64,000 nt of DNA from a virus (IMGVR_UViG_3300033121_000168:1-64000); one strand, 5' to 3'; numbered from the stretch's first letter, positions 176 through 18,056 are shown. Notes: generated by a model from the letters alone, not told the origin. Program-made: numbers and translations.

Positions 176-262
176 GCGAGTGTGCTGGAACTGGTATACA
201 GAACAAGCTTAAACCTTGTTGCCCGTAAGGGATTGAGGGTTCGAATCCCTTCACTCGCACCA
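176..262 (+). tRNA. tRNA-Leu(TAA), type II with long variable arm
   Basis: Acceptor GCGAGTG/CACTCGC, anticodon stem-loop ACAAG-CTTAAAC-CTTGT, T-arm GAGGGTTCGAATCCCTT, CCA encoded; paralogous to the tRNA at 15039. Confidence 0.75.
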
Positions 263-266
263 ATAA

Positions 267-341
267 TGGTGTGAAACTTTTATGGTGAAGTAGAAAACTT
301 TTAATTTTCAAAACAGGGTTCAAGTCCCTGCACACCAACCA
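267..341 (+). tRNA. tRNA-Lys(TTT)
   Basis: Acceptor TGGTGTG/CACACCA perfectly paired, anticodon arm GAAAA-CTTTTAA-TTTTC, T-arm CAGGGTTCAAGTCCCTG, discriminator A + CCA. Confidence 0.7.
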
Positions 342-1637: not shown

Positions 1638-2540
1638 ATGTTTAAAAAGTGTATTAAGTTTTGTTCTATTGCTTTGATTGCAGTTTCTGCAATGTCTATT
1701 ACTGGTTGTGGTGAACGTGTTGAAGTCCCACCAGCTAACATTGGTAAAATCATGACAAATGATGGTTATCAAAAGAATACAATTCCTACATCTAAATTCC
1801 GTTTGGATTACTGCTGGAGTGTTTGTGACAAGCTGGTAACTCTGGATCAGTCAGATAAAACAGTTGTTGAAAAGGTTGTAGTTTTTATGCCAACAGATAA
1901 GCTACAATTGACTGTTCCAGTTCAAACTACTCTTGCAGTTAATCCTACTAAGGTTGATTCTTTGTTCAATACTTTGCCACCTGAAGACGATAGTGATAAT
2001 AATAAGCAAACTGCACAGATTAAGTGGGCTACTATTTATTACACGTATGCACAAAGTATCATTGCTGCTGAGACAACAAGTTTTATCAGTAAATATTCAA
2101 TTGCTGAACTGTCGTCTAATTTGGAACAAATTAATGCTGAATTGCGCAAGCATTTGACTAATACCATTGCACAACGAACACCTTTTAATGCTCGATATGT
2201 TGGAATTTCTCAGATTCAATATCCTGAGATTATTACTAAGGCTCAAGAAGGGGCAGCACAAAGGCGAGAACAGATTCAAACAGAAGAAGCTCAACTTGAG
2301 ATTAGTAAAGTAAAGCTTGAACGTGAATTGCAAGAAGCACGTTTGACTCGTCAGATTGAAATTGAAAAGTCTCAAACTACTGCAGCAGCGAACCGCGTCC
2401 AAGCTGAAACTATTACTTCTGCTGTGCTAGAAAAGCAACGTCTTGACAATCAAGCAGCATGGATTGAAAAGTGGAATGGTATTCTCCCTGGCAATGTAAC
2501 TGCTGATGTTTTTGCTGGCTTTAATAAGGCTCCTAAGTAA
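1638..2540 (+). CDS. putative lipoprotein with coiled-coil, SPFH/band-7-like C-terminal region
   Basis: Signal peptide plus lipobox (AMSITGC), long Q/E/R-rich coiled coil, C-terminal WIEKWNGILP resembling the WDGKLP end of HflK/C-type SPFH proteins. Confidence 0.5.
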   Translation: MFKKCIKFCSIALIAVSAMSITGCGERVEVPPANIGKIMTNDGYQKNTIPTSKFRLDYCWSVCDKLVTLDQSDKTVVEKVVVFMPTDKLQLTVPVQTTLAVNPTKVDSLFNTLPPEDDSDNNKQTAQIKWATIYYTYAQSIIAAETTSFISKYSIAELSSNLEQINAELRKHLTNTIAQRTPFNARYVGISQIQYPEIITKAQEGAAQRREQIQTEEAQLEISKVKLERELQEARLTRQIEIEKSQTTAAANRVQAETITSAVLEKQRLDNQAAWIEKWNGILPGNVTADVFAGFNKAPK

Positions 2541-2884
2541 TGAATTACTTGATTGATTTTGTAATTGCATATCCAGCTTGGAATCTTGCACTTCTTTCTC
2601 TTTCACTTTATTCATATATTACATGCAAAAGTAAAGAAACAGAGAATTTTAGTAAATATGCAATGTTGGTAACTCTAATTGTAGGTATTTTAGTTACTTT
2701 CAACTCTGCATTGATTAAGCCTAAAACGCACGTAGAGCCTTTTAAGCCTTCAGAGGTAGTAACCCATCAGATGGATGAAGAAGTCGCTTCTAAGCCCTTT
2801 ACAGACCGTTTGAGCAAGCCTAAGGAATCAAAGCTGAATGAATCCTTGACCTTCAAACAAGAAGTGCAAAAATACAACAAATAA
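2540..2884 (+). CDS. membrane protein (2 TM)
   Basis: ATG overlaps upstream TAA (TAATGA); two hydrophobic helices. Confidence 0.5.
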   Translation: MNYLIDFVIAYPAWNLALLSLSLYSYITCKSKETENFSKYAMLVTLIVGILVTFNSALIKPKTHVEPFKPSEVVTHQMDEEVASKPFTDRLSKPKESKLNESLTFKQEVQKYNK

Positions 2885-2892
2885 CCAACTGA

Positions 2893-2933
2893 GGTCAAGG
2901 GTCTTTAAATAGTCTCTTGACCTTTTTCTTTTT
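2893..2933 (+). terminator. rho-independent terminator
   Basis: GGTCAAG...CTTGACC hairpin followed by TTTTTCTTTTT. Confidence 0.7.
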
Positions 2934-2973
2934 CTAAAGCATACTTCTTGCATCGAGTTAATAGGAGATACGA

Positions 2974-3285
2974 ATGGAAAAGAAACTTGAATTTTGGATC
3001 TACTCTCTTTACCGAAAAGAGTTTCAAGAAAACTGGAATAAGATTGATGATAATGGTAATCCTGAAATTGAAGCAGTAGATGTTCTTGTATACGAAAGAG
3101 TCATCAATGATCCATCGGATAACCTGTGTATTGGCGGTATTGGTATTGATGGTAAATATTATCAGTTTGATTCATATGAAGCGTATCATGCTGCAAACTG
3201 GTTTGCTGAACGTGAAAGTGTTCATGGACTTAGAGTTGAATCTGTAAAAGTTTCAGTAGACCGAAATAACCTAATAATTCTGTAA
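2974..3285 (+). CDS. hypothetical protein
   Basis: 103-aa ORF, GGAGATA RBS. Confidence 0.5.
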   Translation: MEKKLEFWIYSLYRKEFQENWNKIDDNGNPEIEAVDVLVYERVINDPSDNLCIGGIGIDGKYYQFDSYEAYHAANWFAERESVHGLRVESVKVSVDRNNLIIL

Positions 3286-3308
3286 AATTCAGATCTAGAG
3301 GAGTAAAT

Positions 3309-3512
3309 ATGAAGTCAGAACGTATTATTGAAAGTAAATACGAAATTGCTGAAGTTGATGGTAGATTCTGTCTACGAATTCAAGTATTAGCATATAATGT
3401 ACTTAGAGATGACACCTACTGGGTAACTGTGCATTGGAAATATTATCATACAATTGATAAAGCAAAACGAGTCCAAACTGAATTCTACAAAACACACAAC
3501 CTTACTGAATAA
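3309..3512 (+). CDS. hypothetical protein
   Basis: 67-aa ORF, GGAG RBS. Confidence 0.45.
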   Translation: MKSERIIESKYEIAEVDGRFCLRIQVLAYNVLRDDTYWVTVHWKYYHTIDKAKRVQTEFYKTHNLTE

Positions 3513-3546
3513 TTCTGTAAAATTCAGATCTAGATTTTGGAAATTT

Positions 3547-3723
3547 ATGCAATACAAAAAAGGTAAAGTACCAAAAGGTCATAATTTTTCTGGTAGACTT
3601 CTTTTAGGCAGATGGAGTTATTGTAAAAAATGTCTAATCGTAAACCTAAACAATAAAGCTAGTCGAAAGAAAGTAGAACAAGCTTGTAGAGGTGATAAAT
3701 ATGATGATTATGAATTGGATTAA
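3547..3723 (+). CDS. hypothetical small basic protein
   Basis: Internal ATG of the 3454-3723 ORF; the listed upstream part overlaps the intergenic repeat. Confidence 0.35.
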   Translation: MQYKKGKVPKGHNFSGRLLLGRWSYCKKCLIVNLNNKASRKKVEQACRGDKYDDYELD

Positions 3724-3725
3724 AC

Positions 3726-3941
3726 ATGAATATCCTAACTAGAAACGAAGTATTTGAATCATATTCTGAAGCTGAAAAATATGCTTCTGGGATGATGACA
3801 TTTGAGCAAATTGTTGAAGTCTATAGAGATTTATCTATTGCAGAAAAACAACAGTTTGCAGTCTATAAAGTACAAATCCTTGGTGGATATGATACAATGC
3901 TATTTACACGCTACGAAGTTGTTAAATCTGAAAGGAACTAA
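3726..3941 (+). CDS. hypothetical protein
   Basis: 71-aa ORF immediately after the previous stop. Confidence 0.45.
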   Translation: MNILTRNEVFESYSEAEKYASGMMTFEQIVEVYRDLSIAEKQQFAVYKVQILGGYDTMLFTRYEVVKSERN

Positions 3942-4081
3942 TACAATTACTGCAATTGACAATACACCAAAATCCGAACAATCCTGTCAAAAATCGTGTA
4001 GAATCCTAGAAATTATATAAGAAATTTCTACAGATTTATAGAATTAGATTAACAAGATATCAAATACTTAAAGGAATTAAG

Positions 4082-4681
4082 ATGCAAGAATATGTTCGTA
4101 AAGATCGTAATGGTAATGAGTTGAAGGTTGGGGATAAGGTTAACCAAATTGAAGATGAGGTAATTGTTGGTTCAGGTAAAGTAAAACCACCGCAATATAC
4201 TTACCCATGGGCACATGAAGGAGATATTGTCTGGATTGAATGGGAAACTGCTACTCATGAATTTGAAGATAACATTGGTCAAATTGTGCAATGGCGGCTC
4301 GATGACACTGAACACGTAGAGAAGATTGATACCAAACAAGAATTTAACAAGCCCACACCTCATCCTCATGCAGAACTGATTAAACTGTGGGCTGATGATT
4401 TCACTATCAAGTTTCAGTACAAGTTTAAAGATTCTGTTGTTTGGAATGATCTAAATGCAGACCCAGTTTGGAATAAAACTTTAGAATATCGAGTCAAACC
4501 AAAAGAAAAGAAGTTTGTTGATAAGTATTATTATACTTGTGAAAATCAACATGGAGTGGTTTTTGTAACTGATGACAAATATTCAGATAATGAATGGGAG
4601 TCTTTTATTAAAGAACAAAACATCACTCAATATGTCCGACTAGATTTCAGTCTTACCAAGGTAGAAGTTAAAGAAGATTAA
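4082..4681 (+). CDS. hypothetical protein
   Basis: 199-aa ORF, AAGGAAT RBS, preceded by a 140-bp intergenic region with inverted repeats. Confidence 0.55.
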   Translation: MQEYVRKDRNGNELKVGDKVNQIEDEVIVGSGKVKPPQYTYPWAHEGDIVWIEWETATHEFEDNIGQIVQWRLDDTEHVEKIDTKQEFNKPTPHPHAELIKLWADDFTIKFQYKFKDSVVWNDLNADPVWNKTLEYRVKPKEKKFVDKYYYTCENQHGVVFVTDDKYSDNEWESFIKEQNITQYVRLDFSLTKVEVKED

Positions 4682-5141: not shown

Positions 5142-5366
5142 ATGCACTGTCGTATCACTAAACCAAAAGGGTTACAGACTAACCCGCAAAAGCGCAACTC
5201 AATTAATAAATGCTTTGAGATTAATAAGATATATTCACATCTGAACATTAATCATTATATATTAAATGGGAGTCCTTTTATTTGGACTGAATCCGAAATT
5301 GAACTTGTTACACCAGACCAATTTAACGTTTCACATTTAACATATGAATTTACAACTAGAGACTAA
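5142..5366 (+). CDS. hypothetical protein
   Basis: 74-aa ORF with GGGG RBS, inside an otherwise non-coding repeat-rich region. Confidence 0.3.
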   Translation: MHCRITKPKGLQTNPQKRNSINKCFEINKIYSHLNINHYILNGSPFIWTESEIELVTPDQFNVSHLTYEFTTRD

Positions 5367-5836
5367 GCAAGCTCTGTGCCTACATATGTAGGGTTTCTAC
5401 TCAGTTTTGATCAATCTAGGGTTTATCCTAACTTAGACTGAATTGTCACTAAATGACGAATCCTCAGGAATGCCCTTAAAACGCTCTACAATCGATTTTC
5501 ACCCCTTGCCTATAGTCTGGTCTCAAAAAATATAGTTCTCGCAACATGGAGCTATCCTCAGGTTCTAAACATGGGTTTACATAGACAAAAATCCAGACTT
5601 ATCCACATGTTGTAAAATAATAACAAAGTATTTTACTAGGGTTTGTGTTTTGTGTTACGCGTGCATGCGTGTCTAGATCTAGGGACGGGTTTTCAATAGC
5701 GTTACAAATTATTACAGTTTGTTGTAACAAAACAACGGAATTCTGTGCATAATGGGAACCAATGCAGCAATGCAGACGACACAGGAAAAACATGATACTA
5801 CGTCAAGCCCTCACACAAACCAAAGGAAGTGATTAA

Positions 5837-12115: not shown

Positions 12116-12604
12116 GTGAATATGAAAGAAATTTTGGAAATACTTGACTATGATAAAAATAGTGGTAAAATTAAAAATAAAGTAACAAAGAAATTTCTTT
12201 CTGTTCAAGAAGATGGTTATGCTGTAGTTGTATTTGGGAATGGTAAGTCTAAAAAAATTAAGTTTAATAAGTTATGTTTGATTCTTGGTTATGGGGTTGA
12301 TTTAATTCCTGACTTCAAGATTATTCATAGGAATTTAAACACAAAGGATTTTAGACTTTCCAATCTAATGCAGATTTCGAAAGAAGACTACAAGAATCTT
12401 AAGGAAGCACTTAAAAATATCCAGGGAGGAATTACTGTGCTTCCGCATCCTACTGATGTATTTACTTACAAAGTAAGTTGGTATTCTGGAAACATAAAGA
12501 AAACTAGAGTTATACAGGACTTAGTTGTTGCTAAGAGGTTAGAGATTAGATTGAAGCTTAAATATAGTAAAATAATAAGTAAATTCTGTTTATTTGAAGA
12601 ATAA
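12116..12604 (+). CDS. hypothetical protein
   Basis: 162 aa, GAGGTGA RBS. Confidence 0.5.
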   Translation: MNMKEILEILDYDKNSGKIKNKVTKKFLSVQEDGYAVVVFGNGKSKKIKFNKLCLILGYGVDLIPDFKIIHRNLNTKDFRLSNLMQISKEDYKNLKEALKNIQGGITVLPHPTDVFTYKVSWYSGNIKKTRVIQDLVVAKRLEIRLKLKYSKIISKFCLFEE

Positions 12605-12852: not shown

Positions 12853-13056
12853 ATGATTTGTATTTCTTGTGGTGCATATTTTAAGCAGAATAGATTTAAT
12901 GAAACTTTGACATGTGAAATGTGTCTAGATGGTTTGAATGAACCAGTTTTGTATGAATCCGTGTATGAAGCTGATGTTCAAACAATTACAAATCCTTCTG
13001 GGAAGACAAAGCCTGTTTTCTTAGATGAAGTGCAAGAACCTCTTGACAGGGTTTAA
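12853..13056 (+). CDS. zinc-ribbon small protein
   Basis: CISCG ... CEMC double CxxC. Confidence 0.45.
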   Translation: MICISCGAYFKQNRFNETLTCEMCLDGLNEPVLYESVYEADVQTITNPSGKTKPVFLDEVQEPLDRV

Positions 13057-13070
13057 TTTTCTGCTACAAT
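13043..13070 (+). promoter_or_regulatory. near-consensus sigma70 promoter (TTGACA-16 nt-TGcTACAAT) for the small ORF and tRNA operon
   Basis: TTGACA at 13043-13048, 16-nt spacer, extended -10 TGCTACAAT at 13062-13070. Confidence 0.7.
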
Positions 13071-13100: not shown

Positions 13101-13235
13101 ATGTACTTTAAGGATATTGAAACAAGTCGTGCTGGGAAGTTGACTCATGATAAGAATCAGAAGTCAAACGCACGTAAACGTTTAGATGATGTTGCTGCAA
13201 AGCTTAAGTTGAAGCATCAACGTCAGAACAGTTAA
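13101..13235 (+). CDS. small basic protein (44 aa)
   Basis: AAGGAG RBS, MYFKDIETSRAGKLTHDKNQKSNARKRLDDVAAKLKLKHQRQNS; directly upstream of the tRNA block. Confidence 0.4.
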   Translation: MYFKDIETSRAGKLTHDKNQKSNARKRLDDVAAKLKLKHQRQNS

Positions 13236-13242
13236 GAATTTA

Positions 13243-13317
13243 GGGTAATTCGTATAGAGGTTATTACGGTGGATTGTCGATCCATTTACAGGAGTTCAAT
13301 TCTCCTATTGCCCGCCA
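13243..13317 (+). tRNA. tRNA-Asp(GTC)
   Basis: Acceptor GGGTAAT/ATTGCCC (one G-U), anticodon loop TTGTCGA, T-arm GGAGTTCAATTCTCC, CCA. Confidence 0.6.
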
Positions 13318-13322
13318 AACTT

Positions 13323-13398
13323 GCCTGAATAGCTCAGATGGTAGAGCGATTCCCTGAAGAGGAATGCGTCGGAGGTTCGAATCCTTCTTCTGGCACCA
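13323..13398 (+). tRNA. tRNA-Phe(GAA)
   Basis: D-arm AGCTCAGATGGTAGAGCG, anticodon arm ATTCC-CTGAAGA-GGAAT, T-arm GGAGGTTCGAATCCTTC; one acceptor mismatch. Confidence 0.75.
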
Positions 13399-13483
13399 AA
13401 GAAAATGCATGTTGTTTGGCTACAACAAACACTAATCAAGAATGATGACGATACTTGACATTGAAGTGGAAAGCTTCTATAAT

Positions 13484-13555
13484 AGAGACTTAGCACAGAG
13501 GTAGTGCGGCTCCTTTACACGGAGTAGGTCATAGGTTCGATCCCTATAGTCTCTA
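13484..13555 (+). tRNA. tRNA-Val(TAC)
   Basis: Acceptor AGAGACT/AGTCTCT, anticodon loop TTTACAC, T-arm ATAGGTTCGATCCCTAT; CCA not encoded. Confidence 0.7.
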
Positions 13556-13559
13556 CAAT

Positions 13560-13635
13560 GTCGATATAGTTTAGTTGGTTAGAACAGGAGACTTTCAATC
13601 TCCAAAGTCGGGTTCGATCCCCGATATCGACTCCA
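13560..13635 (+). tRNA. tRNA-Glu(TTC)
   Basis: Acceptor GTCGATA/TATCGAC, anticodon arm GGAGA-CTTTCAA-TCTCC, T-arm TCGGGTTCGATCCCCGA, CCA. Confidence 0.8.
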
Positions 13636-13647
13636 GAATTTTTAGGT

Positions 13648-13720
13648 GTGACTATAACTCAACTGGTTAGAGTTTCAGGTTGTGACCCTGAATGTGAGAG
13701 TTCAAGTCTCTCTAGTCACC
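13648..13720 (+). tRNA. tRNA-His(GTG)
   Basis: Acceptor GTGACTA/TAGTCAC, anticodon arm TCAGG-TTGTGAC-CCTGA, T-arm GAGAGTTCAAGTCTCTC. Confidence 0.75.
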
Positions 13721-13733
13721 CCTAAGAGTTTAA

Positions 13734-13809
13734 TGCGGGATAACTCAGTTGGTAGAGTGCGAGGCTCATAACCTTGATGTCGTCGGTTCGAATCCGGCTC
13801 CCGCAACCA
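13734..13809 (+). tRNA. tRNA-Met(CAT), elongator-type (or Ile2 via lysidine)
   Basis: Acceptor TGCGGGA/TCCCGCA fully paired, anticodon loop CTCATAA, T-arm GTCGGTTCGAATCCGGC, CCA. Confidence 0.75.
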
Positions 13810-13816
13810 GAATTGA

Positions 13817-13892
13817 TGCCGGTTAGCTCAGTTGTTAGAGCACTCGCTTGATAAGCGATAGGTCGTTGGTTAGAGTCCAACACTGGCAACCA
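13817..13892 (+). tRNA. tRNA-Ile(GAT)
   Basis: Acceptor TGCCGGT/ACTGGCA, D-arm GCTCAGTTGTTAGAGC, anticodon loop TTGATAA, CCA. Confidence 0.7.
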
Positions 13893-13922
13893 TTTGATGG
13901 GTCTTTATTTAAAAGATCTTGT

Positions 13923-14000
13923 TGGCGAGTAGAATAGTTTGGCCTAATTCAAGCGGCTTTGACCCGCTGATCGTTGGTTCGAATCCAACCTCGTCTGCCA
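13923..14000 (+). tRNA. tRNA-Gln(TTG), acceptor first pair U1-U72 mismatch
   Basis: Anticodon arm AGCGG-CTTTGAC-CCGCT, T-arm GTTGGTTCGAATCCAAC, acceptor TGGCGAG/CTCGTCT (6/7 pairs), CCA. Confidence 0.55.
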
Positions 14001-14007
14001 AATTTGT

Positions 14008-14093
14008 TCCGTTGTAGGAGAATTGGTAAATCCAGCACACTGTTAATGTGCCACTTAATTGTACTGTAGGTTCGAAGCCTACCAACGGAGCCA
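14008..14093 (+). tRNA. tRNA with anticodon GTT (Asn) but type-II length (86 nt, 14-nt variable region)
   Basis: Acceptor TCCGTTG/CAACGGA perfect, anticodon arm GCACA-CTGTTAA-TGTGC, extra CACTTAATTGTACT before T-arm GTAGGTTCGAAGCCTAC, CCA. Confidence 0.55.
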
Positions 14094-14095
14094 AA

Positions 14096-14317
14096 ATTTC
14101 AATACAGCTAGACCGGCCAGTCGAAAAGAATCAATTTTCAAATACAATTCCTCTTGAAGTTGAACATATTGATGGTAATAGTCAAAATAATGTAGAATCA
14201 AATTTAACCTTACTTTGTCCAAATTGTCACTCATTGACTAAAACTTATAAATCTTTGAATAAAGGTAATGGGGGATATAGTAGAATGAAAAGGTATAGAG
14301 AAGGTAAAAGTTATTAA
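14096..14317 (+). pseudogene. HNH homing-endonuclease remnant (C-terminal HNH motif only, no canonical start)
   Basis: In-frame translation ...EVEHIDGNSQNNVESNLTLLCPNCHSLTKTYKS... carries the HNH core; the frame opens inside the upstream tRNA with no ATG/GTG/TTG, only a possible ATT at 14096 after a GGAG. Confidence 0.5.
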
Positions 14318-14401
14318 GCTGGGTTAGCATAGTGGGAGTGCAACGGTTTTGTAATCCGTCGAAGAAATTCAAAGGGTGTTCGATTCACCCACTCAGCACC
14401 A
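14318..14401 (+). tRNA. tRNA with anticodon TGT (Thr) but 84 nt long (14-nt variable hairpin, U31-U39 mismatch)
   Basis: Acceptor GCTGGGT/ACTCAGC, anticodon arm ACGGT-TTTGTAA-TCCGT, variable CGAAGAAATTCAAA (GAA/TTC hairpin), T-arm GGGTGTTCGATTCACCC, CCA. Confidence 0.5.
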
Positions 14402-14410
14402 ATTTATAAT

Positions 14411-14487
14411 GCGTGTATGGTGTTTAACGGCTAACATCTCTGGCTTCCACCCAGAAGTTCTCGGTTCGAATCCGAGTACCCGCACCA
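14411..14487 (+). tRNA. tRNA-Gly(TCC)
   Basis: Anticodon arm TCTGG-CTTCCAC-CCAGA, T-arm CTCGGTTCGAATCCGAG, acceptor GCGTGTA/TACCCGC (one mismatch), CCA. Confidence 0.7.
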
Positions 14488-14491
14488 GAAT

Positions 14492-14588
14492 TACAGTATG
14501 GCCGAGTGACTAGGCAGCGAATTGCTCCTACATAAGTAGGAAAAGTCAAACTCGCTTCAGGCTGGTTAAAATCCAGTTACTGTATCCA
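14492..14588 (+). tRNA. tRNA-like gene (Ser-type TGGCCGAG D-arm) with a 31-nt insertion in the anticodon arm; possibly interrupted or pseudo
   Basis: Acceptor TACAGTA/TACTGTA perfect, D-arm GCCGAGTGACTAGGC, T-arm GCTGGTTAAAATCCAGT, CCA. The only 5-bp anticodon-stem pairing (AGCGA/TCGCT) encloses 31 nt (ATTGCTCCTACATAAGTAGGAAAAGTCAAAC) with an internal hairpin, not a 7-nt loop. Confidence 0.4.
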
Positions 14589-14593
14589 AATTA

Positions 14594-14679
14594 GGAGTAA
14601 TGGCGAAATGGTAGCCGCAAGAGTTTGCTAAACTCTCGTTAGAAATGGCGTGTAGGTTCAAGTCCTACTTACTCCGCCA
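14594..14679 (+). tRNA. tRNA-Ser(GCT), type II
   Basis: Acceptor GGAGTAA/TTACTCC perfect, anticodon arm AGAGT-TTGCTAA-ACTCT, long variable arm, T-arm GTAGGTTCAAGTCCTAC, CCA. Confidence 0.75.
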
Positions 14680-14688
14680 ATATGAATT

Positions 14689-14777
14689 AGAGTGTAGCTA
14701 CAAAGGGTACAAACAGGACTTGAAATCCTGGCTACTGTAGAGATACGGTAAGGGTTCGATTCCTTTACACTCTGCCA
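14689..14777 (+). tRNA. tRNA-Ser(TGA), type II
   Basis: Acceptor AGAGTGT/ACACTCT perfect, anticodon arm CAGGA-CTTGAAA-TCCTG, long variable arm, T-arm AAGGGTTCGATTCCTTT, CCA. Confidence 0.75.
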
Positions 14778-14784
14778 TAAATTA

Positions 14785-14870
14785 GGATGAGTAGACTCGT
14801 AAGGAGCGAGGACAGCCTGTAAAGCTGTTGTCTATCGGCCAGCTTGGATCGTTACCAAGGTCATCCACCA
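14785..14870 (+). tRNA. tRNA-Tyr(GTA), type II
   Basis: Anticodon arm ACAGC-CTGTAAA-GCTGT, long variable arm, T-arm CTTGGATCGTTACCAAG, acceptor GGATGAG/GTCATCC, CCA. Confidence 0.65.
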
Positions 14871-14876
14871 ATAAAT

Positions 14877-14953
14877 GGGGTCGCATGTACCAAGGGCGGC
14901 GAAGGAGGTTTGCACCTTTCTTGTGGTGAGTTCGATTCTCACTGGCTCCACCA
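14877..14953 (+). tRNA. tRNA-Ala(TGC) with G3-U70 identity pair
   Basis: Acceptor GGGGTCG/TGGCTCC including the G3-U70 wobble, anticodon loop TTTGCAC, T-arm GTGAGTTCGATTCTCAC, CCA. Confidence 0.7.
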
Positions 14954-14955
14954 AT

Positions 14956-15031
14956 CTTCATATAGCGCAGTTGGTAGCGCGTTTGCTTTGGGAGCATAAG
15001 GTCGAAGGTTCGAATCCTTCTATGAAGACCA
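14956..15031 (+). tRNA. tRNA-Pro(TGG)
   Basis: Acceptor CTTCATA/TATGAAG perfect, D-arm GCGCAGTTGGTAGCGC, anticodon loop TTTGGGA (G37), T-arm GAAGGTTCGAATCCTTC, CCA. Confidence 0.75.
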
Positions 15032-15038
15032 AATTAAA

Positions 15039-15122
15039 GCCTCGGTGGTGGAATGGTATACACACTGCGCTAAGAACGCAGCGCCGAAGGGATTGAGGGT
15101 TCGACTCCCTCCTGAGGCACCA
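15039..15122 (+). tRNA. tRNA-Leu, type II, anticodon read as AAG (unusual A34)
   Basis: Acceptor GCCTCGG/CTGAGGC, anticodon arm CTGCG-CTAAGAA-CGCAG, variable arm GCCGAAGGGATTG, T-arm GAGGGTTCGACTCCCTC, CCA; paralog of the tRNA at 176. Confidence 0.65.
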
Positions 15123-15138
15123 ATAAGATTTAATTTTT

Positions 15139-15170
15139 ACCCTGTGTATATTACACGGGGTTTTTGCGTT
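15139..15170 (+). terminator. rho-independent terminator closing the tRNA operon
   Basis: 10-bp stem ACCCTGTGTA/TACACGGGGT with 3-nt loop followed by TTTTTGCGTTT. Confidence 0.8.
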
Positions 15171-15559: not shown

Positions 15560-17108
15560 ATGAGTTCTAATACTGTATTTGCACCAGCGTCAAAAGCACA
15601 AGAGCAATTCTTGAATAGTGATGCAGATATTACTTTCTATGGTGGTAAAGTTGTGCCTCCATTCAAAACCTATTTAATTCGGTGAAACCCTAACGTAAAA
15701 TCGAGGGCAATACCGAGCCAAGCAGGGGGTATTTTTAATATCCCCGGGCGTGTGTAGAGACTATGGGAAACCAGTAAGGTTCAAGCGAATCTGAAACAGT
15801 AGGATGCTTTATAGCATAAGATATAGTCCGACACCCAAGGAAACTTGGGAGTACTCTAGCGAAGTACATAACTTTCTGGCAGCGGGCAGTGGAAAGAGCC
15901 ATTGCTTACTTATGTCGTTCCTAAAGTTTTGTCATCATCCACGTACTCGTGGTGTGATATTTAGGCGAACAACAAAGCAGATCACAAACCCTGGTGGTTT
16001 ATTTGACTCTGCAGTTAATTTATACAAATTAGTAGATCCTAAACTAAGAGTAAGAATGAGAGAGTTAGAACTTGTTTTTAGTTCTGGAGCTGTTCTCAAA
16101 TTTGCTTACCTTGACAATGCTTCTGATAAATATAACTTCCAAGGTGCGGAACTTACTTTCATTGGTTTTGATGAGATTCAACAATTAAGTGAAGACAATG
16201 TAACTTATTTGTTTTCTCGTTTGCGTTCAACCTCAGTTGATTATAAGAAGCAGATTGTAGCTACAGGTAATCCTGACTACGATAGTTTCATTCGACATTG
16301 GGTTGAATTTGCACTTGATGAGCGTGGCATTCCAATTAGAAAAGATGTTTACCCTACTCGATATATGTGTCAAGCGATGGGTGGCTCTATTGAGTGGGCA
16401 GATACTAGAGAAGAACTAGAGAAGAAATATGGTACTGGGGATGACTCTGGTATTCTATCCTTTACATTCATTCCAGGGACTATTTATGATAATCCACCTT
16501 TGATGAAGGCTGATCCGACTTACGTTAGTAAGTTAAAGAAACTTCCTCGCGTTGAGATGGAACGTCTTCTATTGGGGTCTTGGTATGCAAGACAAGAGGC
16601 TGCAGGACTATGGAAGAGAGAGTGGATTACTCTTGTAGATCATCCTAATCCTAAAGCAACAAAAAGGATTAGAGCCTGGGATTTTGCGTTTAGTCTACCC
16701 TCCGAACAATATCCAAATCCTGACTGGACTCGTGGTGTCCTTATGTCAAAGGATAAGAACAGTGTTTACACAGTTGAAAATGTCGTTTCTATGCGAGACA
16801 GAGTACACGAAGTTGAGAAGTTAGTATTTGAGACTGCAATTCGGGATGGACAAGAGGTTATTATTTCTATACCTATTGACCCTGCAGCAGCAGCAGGAGC
16901 ATATGCTAGAGACTTCCAACGGAGGCTTTCTGAATATGGTTTCAATGTGAAACTATCGAAGCCTGTAAAGTCCAAGGTAACTAGATTTGCTCCATTTTCG
17001 AGTGTAACTCAGGCTGGATTTGTTAATGTAGTAAAGGGTGATTGGAATACTCCTTTCTTTGATGAATTGGAGATATTCGATGGAGATCCTAAGAAAAAAG
17101 ACGATTAA
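15560..17108 (+). CDS. terminase large subunit, split gene: exon 1 15560-15646 (29 aa) + exon 2 15879-17108, joined by group I intron splicing
   Basis: Exon 1 (GGAGG RBS) encodes MSSNTVFAPASKAQEQFLNSDADITFYGG; exon 2 continues AAGSGKSHCLL... (Walker A), FDEIQ Walker B and a C-terminal nuclease domain. The Walker A motif YGG|AAGSGKS is regenerated only when 15647-15878 is removed; exon 2 is in frame 0 with the long ORF 15804-17108. Confidence 0.8.
15647..15878 (+). ncRNA. group I self-splicing intron (232 nt, no ORF) in the terminase large subunit gene
   Basis: 5' exon ends in U (..ATGGTGGT); internal guide sequence GCCTCCAT at 15655-15662 pairs 7/8 with the exon end; P7 strands AGAGACTATGG / AAGATATAGTCC (canonical S element); P9 hairpin CCCAAG-GAAA-CTTGGG; terminal G at 15878 precedes GCAGCGGGC of exon 2. 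Confidence 0.7.
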
Positions 17109-17314
17109 ATTGGGTCGTCTATAAACTCATTGAATTCGGTGGACACCTACTTGGAATCAAGTAGACAATACCGAGCGAAGCTGGTGTAATACCAGAACGT
17201 GTAACGACTAGCCGAAAGGCGTAGGGGCAAGTGCTCCGAAGCGGTGAGAAACCTAATAACTTAGGTTTAAGATATAGTCTCATCTGCATGGTGACATGCA
17301 GCATTTTAATATAG
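17106..17314 (+). ncRNA. second group I intron-like element inserted exactly after the last sense codon of the terminase large subunit (3' boundary uncertain)
   Basis: Exon end AGACGAT (17099-17105, last nt U) pairs perfectly with GTCGTCT at 17114-17120 (P1 with terminal U-G). Shares AATTCGGTG, CAATACCGAGCGAAGC, ACGACTAG (P7 5') and AAGATATAGTCT (P7 3') with the intron at 15647. P9-like hairpin CTGCATG-GTGA-CATGCAG. The terminase TAA stop is the first 3 nt of the element. Confidence 0.5.
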
Positions 17315-17324
17315 GAGAATTTCT

Positions 17325-17852
17325 ATGATTTATAATTCAAACTCTACAGGCCCTTTTAAAATTCTGCAAAGGAATGGTGATGCTTGTTTAATTCAGTTTA
17401 TAGACACCGGCACCACCAAAACTGCTTGTATTTCTAATATATTAGCTGGTAAAGTAAAAGACCAATATTTCCCTACTGTGTATGGTAAGGGGTATTATGG
17501 GGATTACGACAAGACCACGACTTATTACAAGCAGGCTAAACAGCTTTGGCAAAATATGCTAAAAAGATGTTATTGCGAAAAAGACTTAAAAGGTTACTAT
17601 GGTAAAGCAACAGTATCACAAAGATGGCTGAACTTTAGCAATTTCCTAGAGGATTTACCTAGCCTTGTAAACTTTAAGCAGTGGCTTGCTGGACAACAAA
17701 AAACAGGCGGGAAATATAATCTGGATAAAGATTTAAAGGTAAAAGGTAATACCTGTTACTGTAAAGAAGCCTGTATGTTCGTAACTGAGTTTGAAAATAA
17801 ATCAGAGGGCGCTAAAAATGGCAAACCTTATACTAAAATGGGCAAGAGTTAA
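17325..17852 (+). CDS. hypothetical protein next to the second intron-like element; possible intron-associated endonuclease/DNA-binding protein
   Basis: 175 aa with its own GGAG RBS; W-x2-M-x2-RC-Y motif (LWQNMLKRCY) and Tyr/Lys-rich regions reminiscent of DNA-binding modules in homing endonucleases; the position mirrors intron-encoded ORFs. Confidence 0.4.
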   Translation: MIYNSNSTGPFKILQRNGDACLIQFIDTGTTKTACISNILAGKVKDQYFPTVYGKGYYGDYDKTTTYYKQAKQLWQNMLKRCYCEKDLKGYYGKATVSQRWLNFSNFLEDLPSLVNFKQWLAGQQKTGGKYNLDKDLKVKGNTCYCKEACMFVTEFENKSEGAKNGKPYTKMGKS

Positions 17853-18056
17853 CGCCTCTTGTTTAAGGTAATGCAAGCTGATTGTTGTTCAGACGCTTTC
17901 TTGCTTTTGAACAGAGAGTTGATCATACCTGAGATGACTATAACAGAGTTGTCTTCATCAAACCCCTTCAATTTTAACACAAGTCTAGGTCACACAGGAT
18001 TATCTGCTCCACCTTTACCTACAAATTTACCTTCTTTTAATTTTTAAAGGATAATT

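Follow-up and report, generated by a model that had tools for sequence, protein, structure and literature searches.

The 64,000-nt stretch IMGVR_UViG_3300033121_000168:1-64000 (henceforth the window, meaning this whole stretch) is a genome, of 36% GC, of an uncultured freshwater-type phage whose related (sister) contigs reach about 76 kb, and it carries, at 13243-15170 and just upstream of the terminase genes, the tRNA gene array discussed here. Run with default settings on the whole window, ARAGORN called 17 tRNA genes, 15 on the + strand of 13243-15122 and two at 176-341. The array itself holds 18 tRNA or tRNA-like genes, as an earlier note on this DNA had counted: tRNA-Tyr(GTA) and tRNA-Ala(TGC) appeared on relaxed ARAGORN settings and an interrupted tRNA-Cys gene was found by homology (Table 1), so that three of the 18 go undetected by default. 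The overall total of 21 given in that note is corrected to 20, the 18 array genes plus the separate pair. Over 7.4 kb, an independent Logan assembly (SRR32380191, L124) matches the window with 100% identity and contains every oddity described below, including the insertion in tRNA-Cys.

Fourteen of the 18 array genes score 48-70 bits with Rfam model RF00005, including the 86-nt tRNA-Asn (Asn-86), the 84-nt tRNA-Thr (Thr-84), tRNA-Gln and tRNA-Leu(AAG). When a canonical tRNA is taken to have at least 29 bits with RF00005 and an ARAGORN call at the default threshold, 14 of the 18 are canonical, the others being tRNA-Ser(TGA), the Tyr variant, the Ala-like gene and the interrupted Cys gene. For Asn-GTT (86 nt), Thr-TGT (84 nt), Gln-TTG and Leu-AAG, the default ARAGORN calls returned the very anticodons and boundaries of the earlier note, which had allowed that standard predictors might assign others to the Asn, Thr and Leu genes. 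The features it had listed (U31·U39 in Thr, U1·U72 in Gln, G3·U70 in Ala and A34 in Leu) can each be read directly from the sequence, and a consensus scan recovered both its promoter at 13043-13070 and its terminator near 15139. The interior of the array holds a second promoter, P2, of perfect consensus, which is absent from that description, and the strongest oddities are ones that had gone unflagged: the 22-nt insertion in Cys, the Tyr and Ser-TGA scaffolds, G3·U70 in Gln, and the remnant of an HNH endonuclease gene. A complete 3' CCA is encoded by 16 array genes, the exceptions being tRNA-Val and tRNA-His.

Table 1. The tRNA array, its signals and the separate tRNA pair, in window coordinates.
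Feature	Position	Strand	Evidence
Promoter P1, sigma-70-like, TTGACA-16-TACAAT with extended TG	13043-13070	+	11/12 consensus matches (consensus scan)
Small open reading frame (ORF), 44 codons, between P1 and tRNA-Asp	13101-13235	+	Homologous ORF conserved in L001
tRNA-Asp(GTC)	13243-13317	+	ARAGORN default; RF00005 57.9 bits
tRNA-Phe(GAA), U4·U69 mismatch	13323-13398	+	ARAGORN default; RF00005
Promoter P2, perfect TTGACA-17-TATAAT, ends 1 nt before tRNA-Val	13455-13483	+	12/12 matches
tRNA-Val(TAC), CCA not encoded	13484-13556	+	ARAGORN default; RF00005
tRNA-Glu(TTC)	13560-13635	+	ARAGORN default; RF00005
tRNA-His(GTG), CCA incompletely encoded	13648-13722	+	ARAGORN default; RF00005
tRNA-Met(CAT)	13734-13809	+	ARAGORN default; RF00005
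tRNA-Ile(GAT), U19/A56 replacing G19-C56	13817-13892	+	ARAGORN default; RF00005; sequence reading
tRNA-Gln(TTG), U1·U72 and G3·U70	13923-14000	+	ARAGORN default; RF00005
tRNA-Asn(GTT), 86 nt, 14-nt variable region	14008-14093	+	ARAGORN default; RF00005 54.1 bits
Remnant of an HNH endonuclease gene, truncated to the C-terminal 73 codons	14096-14317	+	Pfam PF01844, 25.3 bits
tRNA-Thr(TGT), 84 nt, class I core with variable-arm hairpin GAA-GAAA-UUC, U31·U39	14318-14401	+	ARAGORN default; RF00005
tRNA-Gly(TCC)	14411-14487	+	ARAGORN default; RF00005
tRNA-Cys(GCA), U73, G15:G48, split by 22-nt insertion	14492-14588	+	Homology to uninterrupted copies
22-nt hairpin insertion TCCTAC-ATAA-GTAGGA-AAAGTC in Cys anticodon	14526-14547	+	Alignment; placement ambiguous by 1 nt
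tRNA-Ser(GCT), GAAA-capped variable arm	14594-14679	+	ARAGORN default; RF00005
tRNA-Ser(TGA), weak D-arm, 7-bp GAGA-capped variable arm	14689-14777	+	ARAGORN default; tRNA-Sec model 34.7 bits, below threshold
tRNA-Tyr(GTA), non-canonical	14785-14870	+	ARAGORN -ps95; covariation
tRNA-Ala(TGC)-like, G3·U70, A73, poor D-stem	14877-14953	+	ARAGORN -ps90
tRNA-Pro(TGG), canonical	14956-15031	+	ARAGORN default; RF00005 70.3 bits
tRNA-Leu(AAG), A34	15039-15122	+	ARAGORN default; RF00005
Intrinsic terminator, 10-bp stem (15139-15161) then T-run	15139-15170	+	Consensus scan
Separate pair tRNA-Leu(TAA) 176-262 and tRNA-Lys(TTT) 267-341, 13 kb upstream of the array	176-341	+	ARAGORN default

A non-canonical tRNA-Tyr recurs in related phages and in tRNA islands

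We compared the array with about 85 related phage loci (cited by L numbers), at least 80 of which come from IMG/VR. An nhmmer search with 14785-14871 as the query revealed homologs of the Tyr gene in eight further loci, all without a default ARAGORN call at that place. In the alignment of the nine sequences, 95.4% of the cells are paired and 11 of the 22 pairs show double-sided changes; none of 500 shuffles reached as high a value, and sliding the partners lowered the paired fraction to 34-50%. The connector from the acceptor stem to the D-stem has 3-4 nt instead of two (4 nt in the window), positions 7:66 (a purine-purine mismatch in the window) lack a standard pair in all nine homologs, and the T-loop A-[G/U]-C-G-U-U-A, which is AUCGUUA in the window, replaces T-Ψ-C-R-A. 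Rfam returned no match for this gene, and no canonical tRNA-Tyr was called by ARAGORN in the phages that carry the variant.

A pattern scan of GTDB found the same type of T-arm in Undibacterium amnicola, in an Undibacterium metagenome-assembled genome (MAG) and in four other MAG contigs, assigned to Planctomycetaceae, Pedobacter, Deltaproteobacteria and 'Ca. Scybalousia'. Further tRNA genes lie nearby in five of the six, the regions have 36-46% GC, and at least one contains an HNH-like ORF. By this distribution and the covariation, the Tyr gene is a widespread tRNA-island variant and not a decaying copy. The island on the U. amnicola chromosome contig (L116, NZ_JACOFU010000005.1) spans 1824-4166 and comprises 18 tRNAs including the one with the non-canonical Tyr T-arm; that on a Deltaproteobacteria MAG contig (L120, 152-7585) comprises 21 tRNAs, again including this T-arm, and among these tRNA genes lie an HNH-like ORF and a release-factor-like one that bears a GGQ motif.

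The variable arm of tRNA-Thr is a covarying hairpin

The lengthened tRNA-Thr is likewise found in related phages, at 84 nt in the window, L001 and L085, 85 nt in L046, L054 and L063, 87 nt in L083 and 91 nt in L078. Across the five sequence variants, the extra nucleotides always form a short stem (3 bp in the window) with an invariant GAAA loop, and the stem covaries, since GAA/UUC, AGA/UCU and UGA/UCA alternate; this covariation was read by eye, because MAFFT misaligns the variable arms of L083 and L078. The variant is the sole tRNA-Thr in each of the six carrier loci checked. Its U31·U39 mismatch is also found in most normal-length tRNA-Thr of the clade, and G1-C72, C2-G71, A73 and UGU, the identity set of E. 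coli ThrRS, are intact on inspection by eye. An exact-pattern scan of IMG/VR for this type of variable arm yielded four contigs only, all of one clade.

Thr-84 and Asn-86 both have a variable region of 14 nt, beyond the 10 nt that mark class II tRNAs by length. Their other features are not of class II: tRNA-Thr has a 4-bp D-stem (GCAU/GUGC), A73 and UGU, tRNA-Asn has G73 and GUU, and Thr, Asn and Tyr all fold with a 7/5 acceptor branch instead of an 8/4 or 9/3 split. They are the phage's only Thr and Asn tRNAs. The variable region of Asn-86 forms no convincing hairpin, and the gene is unique to the window phage, its counterpart being partly deleted in L001, L085 and L123.

Added variable-arm hairpins also occur in sequences of the tRNA-Pro(TGG) type, at 2886-2993 of L001 (GGAGA-GAAA-UCUCC) and at 7268-7355 of L075 (88 nt, with a GUAA-containing arm). 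Of the two, only that of L075 has a default ARAGORN call; the L001 sequence was not counted as a tRNA, being uncalled even at -ps80.

tRNA-Leu(AAG), tRNA-Gln and tRNA-Ile

The last gene of the array has the anticodon AAG in the loop CUAAGAA, on a 5-bp stem (CUGCG/CGCAG), with A73 and a leucine tRNA body. It occurs in three sequence variants (that of the window, that of L001, L002, L003 and L085, and that of L052), between which a compensatory change turns G29-C41 into A29-U41; a clear homolog in L046 has the anticodon UAG. S. pyogenes, O. oeni and Lactobacillales are known to have a tRNA-Leu(AAG), whose A34 is edited by TadA to give IAG (PMC11472039, PMC13249217). The phage gene resembles these bacterial tRNAs in its identical anticodon, its CUAAGAA loop and its class II leucine body; unlike them, it is encoded by a phage, and it derives from a homolog of the UAG type. 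In vitro, tRNA-Leu(AAG) is not a substrate that E. coli TadA edits (PMC11472039), and unmodified A34 pairs best with U (PMC11066159). Since the E. coli enzyme leaves tRNA-Leu(AAG) unedited and relatives of the phage infect Proteobacteria, A34 may remain unmodified. The phage's codon count is in keeping with a decoder of CUU: CTT is the commonest leucine codon (35% of Leu codons and 65% of CUN), TTA making up 29%. The earlier suggestion that odd members of the array are specialised decoders is thus reasonable for tRNA-Leu(AAG).

All five clade variants of tRNA-Gln have U1·U72, and four of them have G3·U70. E. coli GlnRS opens the 1-72 pair, so that U1·U72 is compatible with normal charging. G3·U70 is a determinant for AlaRS, and its presence raises the possibility of a dual Gln/Ala identity. 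The tRNA-Ile(GAT) has the D-loop AGUUGUUA and the T-loop UUAGAGU, and the tertiary pair G19-C56 is apparently replaced by U19-A56.

tRNA-Ala-like, tRNA-Ser(TGA) and the interrupted tRNA-Cys

The Ala-like gene keeps G3·U70 and A73 and has a weak D-stem. A tmRNA was considered for this place and rejected: the gene is 77 nt long, the Rfam tmRNA model, although its best match in Rfam, scores 23.4 bits from the acceptor and T-arm only, with 318 model positions skipped, and ARAGORN found no tmRNA in the window. The best Rfam score of tRNA-Ser(TGA) came from the tRNA-Sec model, which aligns it as 9/4 at a score below threshold (Table 1); irregular tRNAs of phage clusters also scored with this model when they were found (PMC5389517). 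Because A8 can pair with U65, both a 7/5 and an 8/4 reading fit, and an 8/4 geometry like that of the phage tRNA-Ser described in PMC5389517 is possible. The Ala-like gene, Asn-86 and Ser-TGA may be either working genes or damaged ones.

Alignment with L001 resolved 14492-14588 into a 75-nt tRNA and a 22-nt insertion. Uninterrupted copies, called at -ps90 in L001 and L123 and at default in L078, have the anticodon GCA, U73, G15 and G48, and from the window to L001 a compensatory change in the anticodon stem turns G29-C41 into A29-U41. The intron mode of ARAGORN (-i1,60), applied to all loci, gave hardly anything but spurious re-readings and did not recover the interrupted gene. Since the insertion splits the anticodon, the window copy cannot decode, and it is most likely a pseudogene.

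Array content differs between closely related phages

At least five array architectures exist among phages whose flanks are about 95% identical and whose terminases are 99-100% identical. With its 18 genes the window is one of them. L001 has no intact Gln or Asn gene, has Trp in place of Pro, and contains extra ORFs, while L085 and L123 are further permutations of the gene order; in L002 and L003, Gln is directly followed by Leu-AAG, and the deletion junction in L002 lies in CCAAATT, a sequence common to tRNA 3' ends. A 5' part of Gln is fused to the 3' end of Asn in L001 and L085, joined just past the T-loop sequence that the two genes have in common, and this chimera is a dead gene. A metagenome scan with the 5' half of tRNA-Cys found a single 1.7-kb contig (L085), which adds a further architecture and is too short for population statistics. 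Between Cys and Ser-GCT, L001 has about 70 nt (1939-2011) that are missing from the window and have complementary ends (AAAGAG...CTCTTT); this could be another degenerate tRNA-like element.

Endonuclease ORFs lie between the tRNA genes, as in phage tRNA clusters with homing endonucleases. The HNH remnant of the window, between Asn and Thr, has no in-frame start downstream of tRNA-Asn. L001 contains, between Ser-GCT and Tyr, an intact ORF of 133 aa in which an HNH-like motif can be recognised, and L123 has a 133-aa called gene at the matching position. These comparisons show the array to be a hot spot of recombination, in which genes are gained and lost; what is visible is the mosaic outcome.

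Genome context and codon usage

The structural module of the phage is on the + strand, and the replication module, with a class II ribonucleotide reductase, ThyX, a family A DNA polymerase and a DnaB-type helicase, is on the - strand. The phage's closest relative in culture is Limnohabitans phage DC31 (PQ492658.1), a 76-kb freshwater phage whose large terminase (TerL) shares 62% identity with that of the window. DC31 has an annotated tRNA cluster at the equivalent position, directly upstream of a DUF5681 gene and TerL, and the clusters have Thr, Glu, Asn, Pro and Tyr in common; these five are all that is annotated in DC31, against 18 genes in the array. A megablast comparison of the array with cultured phages gave a single match, of 45 nt in tRNA-Met, and a look-up with the DUF5681 protein gave one 1.8-kb contig and nothing else.

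Together with tRNA-Leu(TAA) and tRNA-Lys(TTT), the array provides tRNAs for 18 amino acids, Arg and Trp being absent. Codons of the forms NNT and NNA predominate in every box of the phage's codon usage, and the four-codon boxes are served by U34 tRNAs.

Just upstream of the array, an ORF of 162 codons (12116-12604) with a weak HNH_3 match may be a free-standing endonuclease. The TerL gene (15560-18041) is interrupted by two group I introns, matched by RF00028 at 15637-15850 (62 bits) and 17050-17301 (74 bits), and tblastn with the DC31 terminase placed its exons at 15560-15646, 15879-17078 and 17874-18041. Because the introns split the gene, the apparent 'TerL ORF' at 15804-17108 begins and finishes within intron sequence. 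A 175-codon ORF inside the second intron (17325-17852) has no Pfam match and is a candidate intron-encoded homing endonuclease.

Discussion

From the gene content and structures observed here, their conservation and covariation, the match to the phage's codons and the mosaicism, we consider it likely that the locus is a working phage tRNA array: a near-complete set matched to AT-rich codons, with mostly selected structural variants, few dead or uncertain members, and fast turnover. The expression of the array, the aminoacylation of its products and the reason for the odd scaffolds are inferred from these observations. The array would be transcribed from two sigma-70-type promoters, with one terminator, into polycistronic precursors, which host enzymes would process. 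The resulting tRNAs would match the A/U-ending codons of the phage, the U34 tRNAs reading four-codon boxes and Leu-AAG reading CUU. The mini variable arm of Thr, the non-canonical Tyr, U1·U72 in Gln and A34 in Leu would be lineage-specific selected variants that keep cognate identity, and a minority of genes are damaged, such as Cys with its 22-nt hairpin. The junctions of deletions lie at sequences common to tRNA genes, and free-standing HNH genes are gained and lost.

Several observations weigh against this reading. Scores with RF00005 fall below threshold for Ser-TGA, Tyr, Ala and Cys. Among the related loci, Ser-TGA has no comparator homologs and Asn-86 no homolog with a 14-nt variable region; the Ala-like comparators in L001, L085 and L123 are 97-100% identical to the window copy and, being nearly identical, uninformative. 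Neither of two genome-collection scans assigned a host (that with TerL exon 2 found no relatives), so that the argument from codon supply is built from the phage side.

The same observations in part favour decay, the view that the odd members are pseudogenes of an array under relaxed selection, which the earlier note had also entertained. The anticodon of Cys is interrupted, as is the Phe gene of L002 and L003; sister phages show Gln/Asn chimeras and whole-gene losses; the D-stem of the Ala-like gene is poor; and Asn and Ser-TGA lack conserved homologs. Compensatory substitutions, however, keep the Tyr cloverleaf, the variable arm of Thr and the anticodon stem of Leu-AAG, and no phage that carries the variant Thr or Tyr has another gene for that amino acid. 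Decay is thereby refuted for Thr, Tyr and Leu; it also fails for Gln, which is conserved, and it holds for Cys and for the chimeras of the sister phages. As an account of the odd members in general we think it unlikely.

A reasonable but equally improbable explanation is that the unusual scaffolds are adaptations that let the tRNAs escape tRNA-cleaving host defences, or a phage-induced purge of tRNAs, while preserving charging. Resistance to tRNA-targeting defences, or their neutralisation, is documented for phage tRNAs (PMC10264068, PMC11555353, PMC11464382), among them T5 tRNA-Tyr against retron Eco7 (PMC11555353) and T5 tRNA-Lys against PARIS (PMC11464382). Like these, the array tRNAs would be isoacceptors that differ from the host type and are retained by selection: the Thr and Tyr features are conserved and covary and are therefore selected, and tRNA islands of unrelated taxa contain the Tyr variant as well. 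The published cases, however, are changes of the anticodon loop or stem, whereas the array has ordinary anticodon loops and departs from the usual form in the variable arm, the T-loop, the placement of the D-arm and the acceptor stem; moreover, a Pfam scan of 30 ORFs linked no gene for a nuclease, RNA repair or defence to the array. As for decoys against anticodon nucleases, which the earlier note had suggested, the sequence by itself speaks neither for them nor against them. Somewhat less probable still is the bolder proposal that this clade has re-engineered the bodies of several tRNAs to evade tRNA-cleaving systems of the host or set off by the phage, with charging by host synthetases preserved, and that the 22-nt hairpins represent a miniature insertion element of a new kind, directed at tRNA genes. 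If evasion were the explanation, what hides these tRNAs from cleavage would be a GNRA-capped hairpin in class I tRNAs, the re-paired T-loop and shifted D-arm of Tyr, and mismatches in the acceptor stem.

The hairpins themselves could be a miniature mobile element or a removable mini-intron, which we regard as doubtful. In two independent samples, tRNA-Phe (3381-3478 of L002 and 158-255 of L003) has a 22-nt hairpin insertion, ACTCCACCTACTTTTGTAGGTT, between G24 and C25, in the 3' strand of the D-stem, and ARAGORN returns it as a 98-nt 'tRNA-???'. One phage species thus has, in two different tRNA genes, 22-nt insertions built on a common CCTAC-N4-GTAGG hairpin, which by eye are identical at 16 of 21 positions in opposite orientation. 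A hairpin that matches that of the Cys insertion at 13 of 14 positions, CCTACATATGTAGG, lies at 5379-5392, right after the stop of the ORF at 5142-5366; with up to two mismatches, the hairpin pattern has four matches in the window against 0.62 expected; and the same genome has active group I introns. On the other side, of 29 matches to the insertion consensus in IMG/VR, only those in the two contigs already known lie in tRNA genes, and the rest appear to be chance matches in coding DNA, near the estimated chance number; the CCTAC-N4-GTAGG matches in L073 and L075 likewise sit in coding-like sequence. Inspection of the Cys insertion showed no target-site duplication, no bulge-helix-bulge motif and no complementarity between exon ends and insert. 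A group I intron was rejected for the Cys insertion, as RF00028 has no match at 14492-14588, although the same model finds the introns in TerL.

Recoding, in which the variable arms of Thr and Asn would make them substrates of SerRS or LeuRS, or G3·U70 would make Gln a substrate of AlaRS, with certain codons mistranslated as a result, has one precedent in the class II tRNAs of nematodes. It can draw further on allo-tRNAs with long variable arms and non-Ser anticodons (PMC5389517) and on the G3·U70 of most Gln variants, yet it is very improbable, since the identity elements inspected (by eye, for a subset of the tRNAs) are cognate (G1-C72, C2-G71, A73 and UGU in Thr; G73 and GUU in Asn; A73 in Leu; G3·U70 and A73 in Ala; A73 and GUA in Tyr; U73, GCA and G15:G48 in Cys), the variable-arm stem of Thr is just 3 bp, the D-arm and the 7/5 acceptor/T geometry are of class I, and the affected genes are the phage's only Thr and Asn tRNAs. 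The related idea of the earlier note, that some members are suppressors, is not supported: there is no stop anticodon, and every anticodon is a sense one.

A working array of this kind has counterparts. The tRNA regions of the large lytic phages T4, with SegB, and T5 are tRNA clusters with interspersed free-standing homing endonucleases. The array resembles them in its tandem, presumably co-transcribed tRNA genes with endonuclease genes between them, its variable content and its non-consensus tRNAs, and differs in belonging to a DC31-like lineage, in retaining only a remnant of an endonuclease in the window, and in showing structural additions rather than point deviations. Mukai et al. (2017) described allo-tRNAs and 8/4 tRNA-Ser and tRNA-His in phage tRNA clusters (PMC5389517); there, as here, non-canonical cloverleaves in phage clusters had been overlooked by standard tools, but Thr, Asn and Tyr of the array have normal 7/5 geometry with a cognate anticodon and cognate identity elements.

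It is still disputed whether phages carry tRNAs for codon supply or to escape immunity directed at tRNAs, and to this debate the array offers conserved variants at the level of the tRNA body (the GAAA arm of Thr, the Tyr family, the A34 Leu) and not of the anticodon loop. Default tRNA predictors undercount phage tRNAs, missing three of 18 genes here and the Tyr family in eight related loci. The gene content of an array can vary between phages that are about 95% identical, which bears on annotation and on the inference of hosts and codon usage from metagenomic phages.

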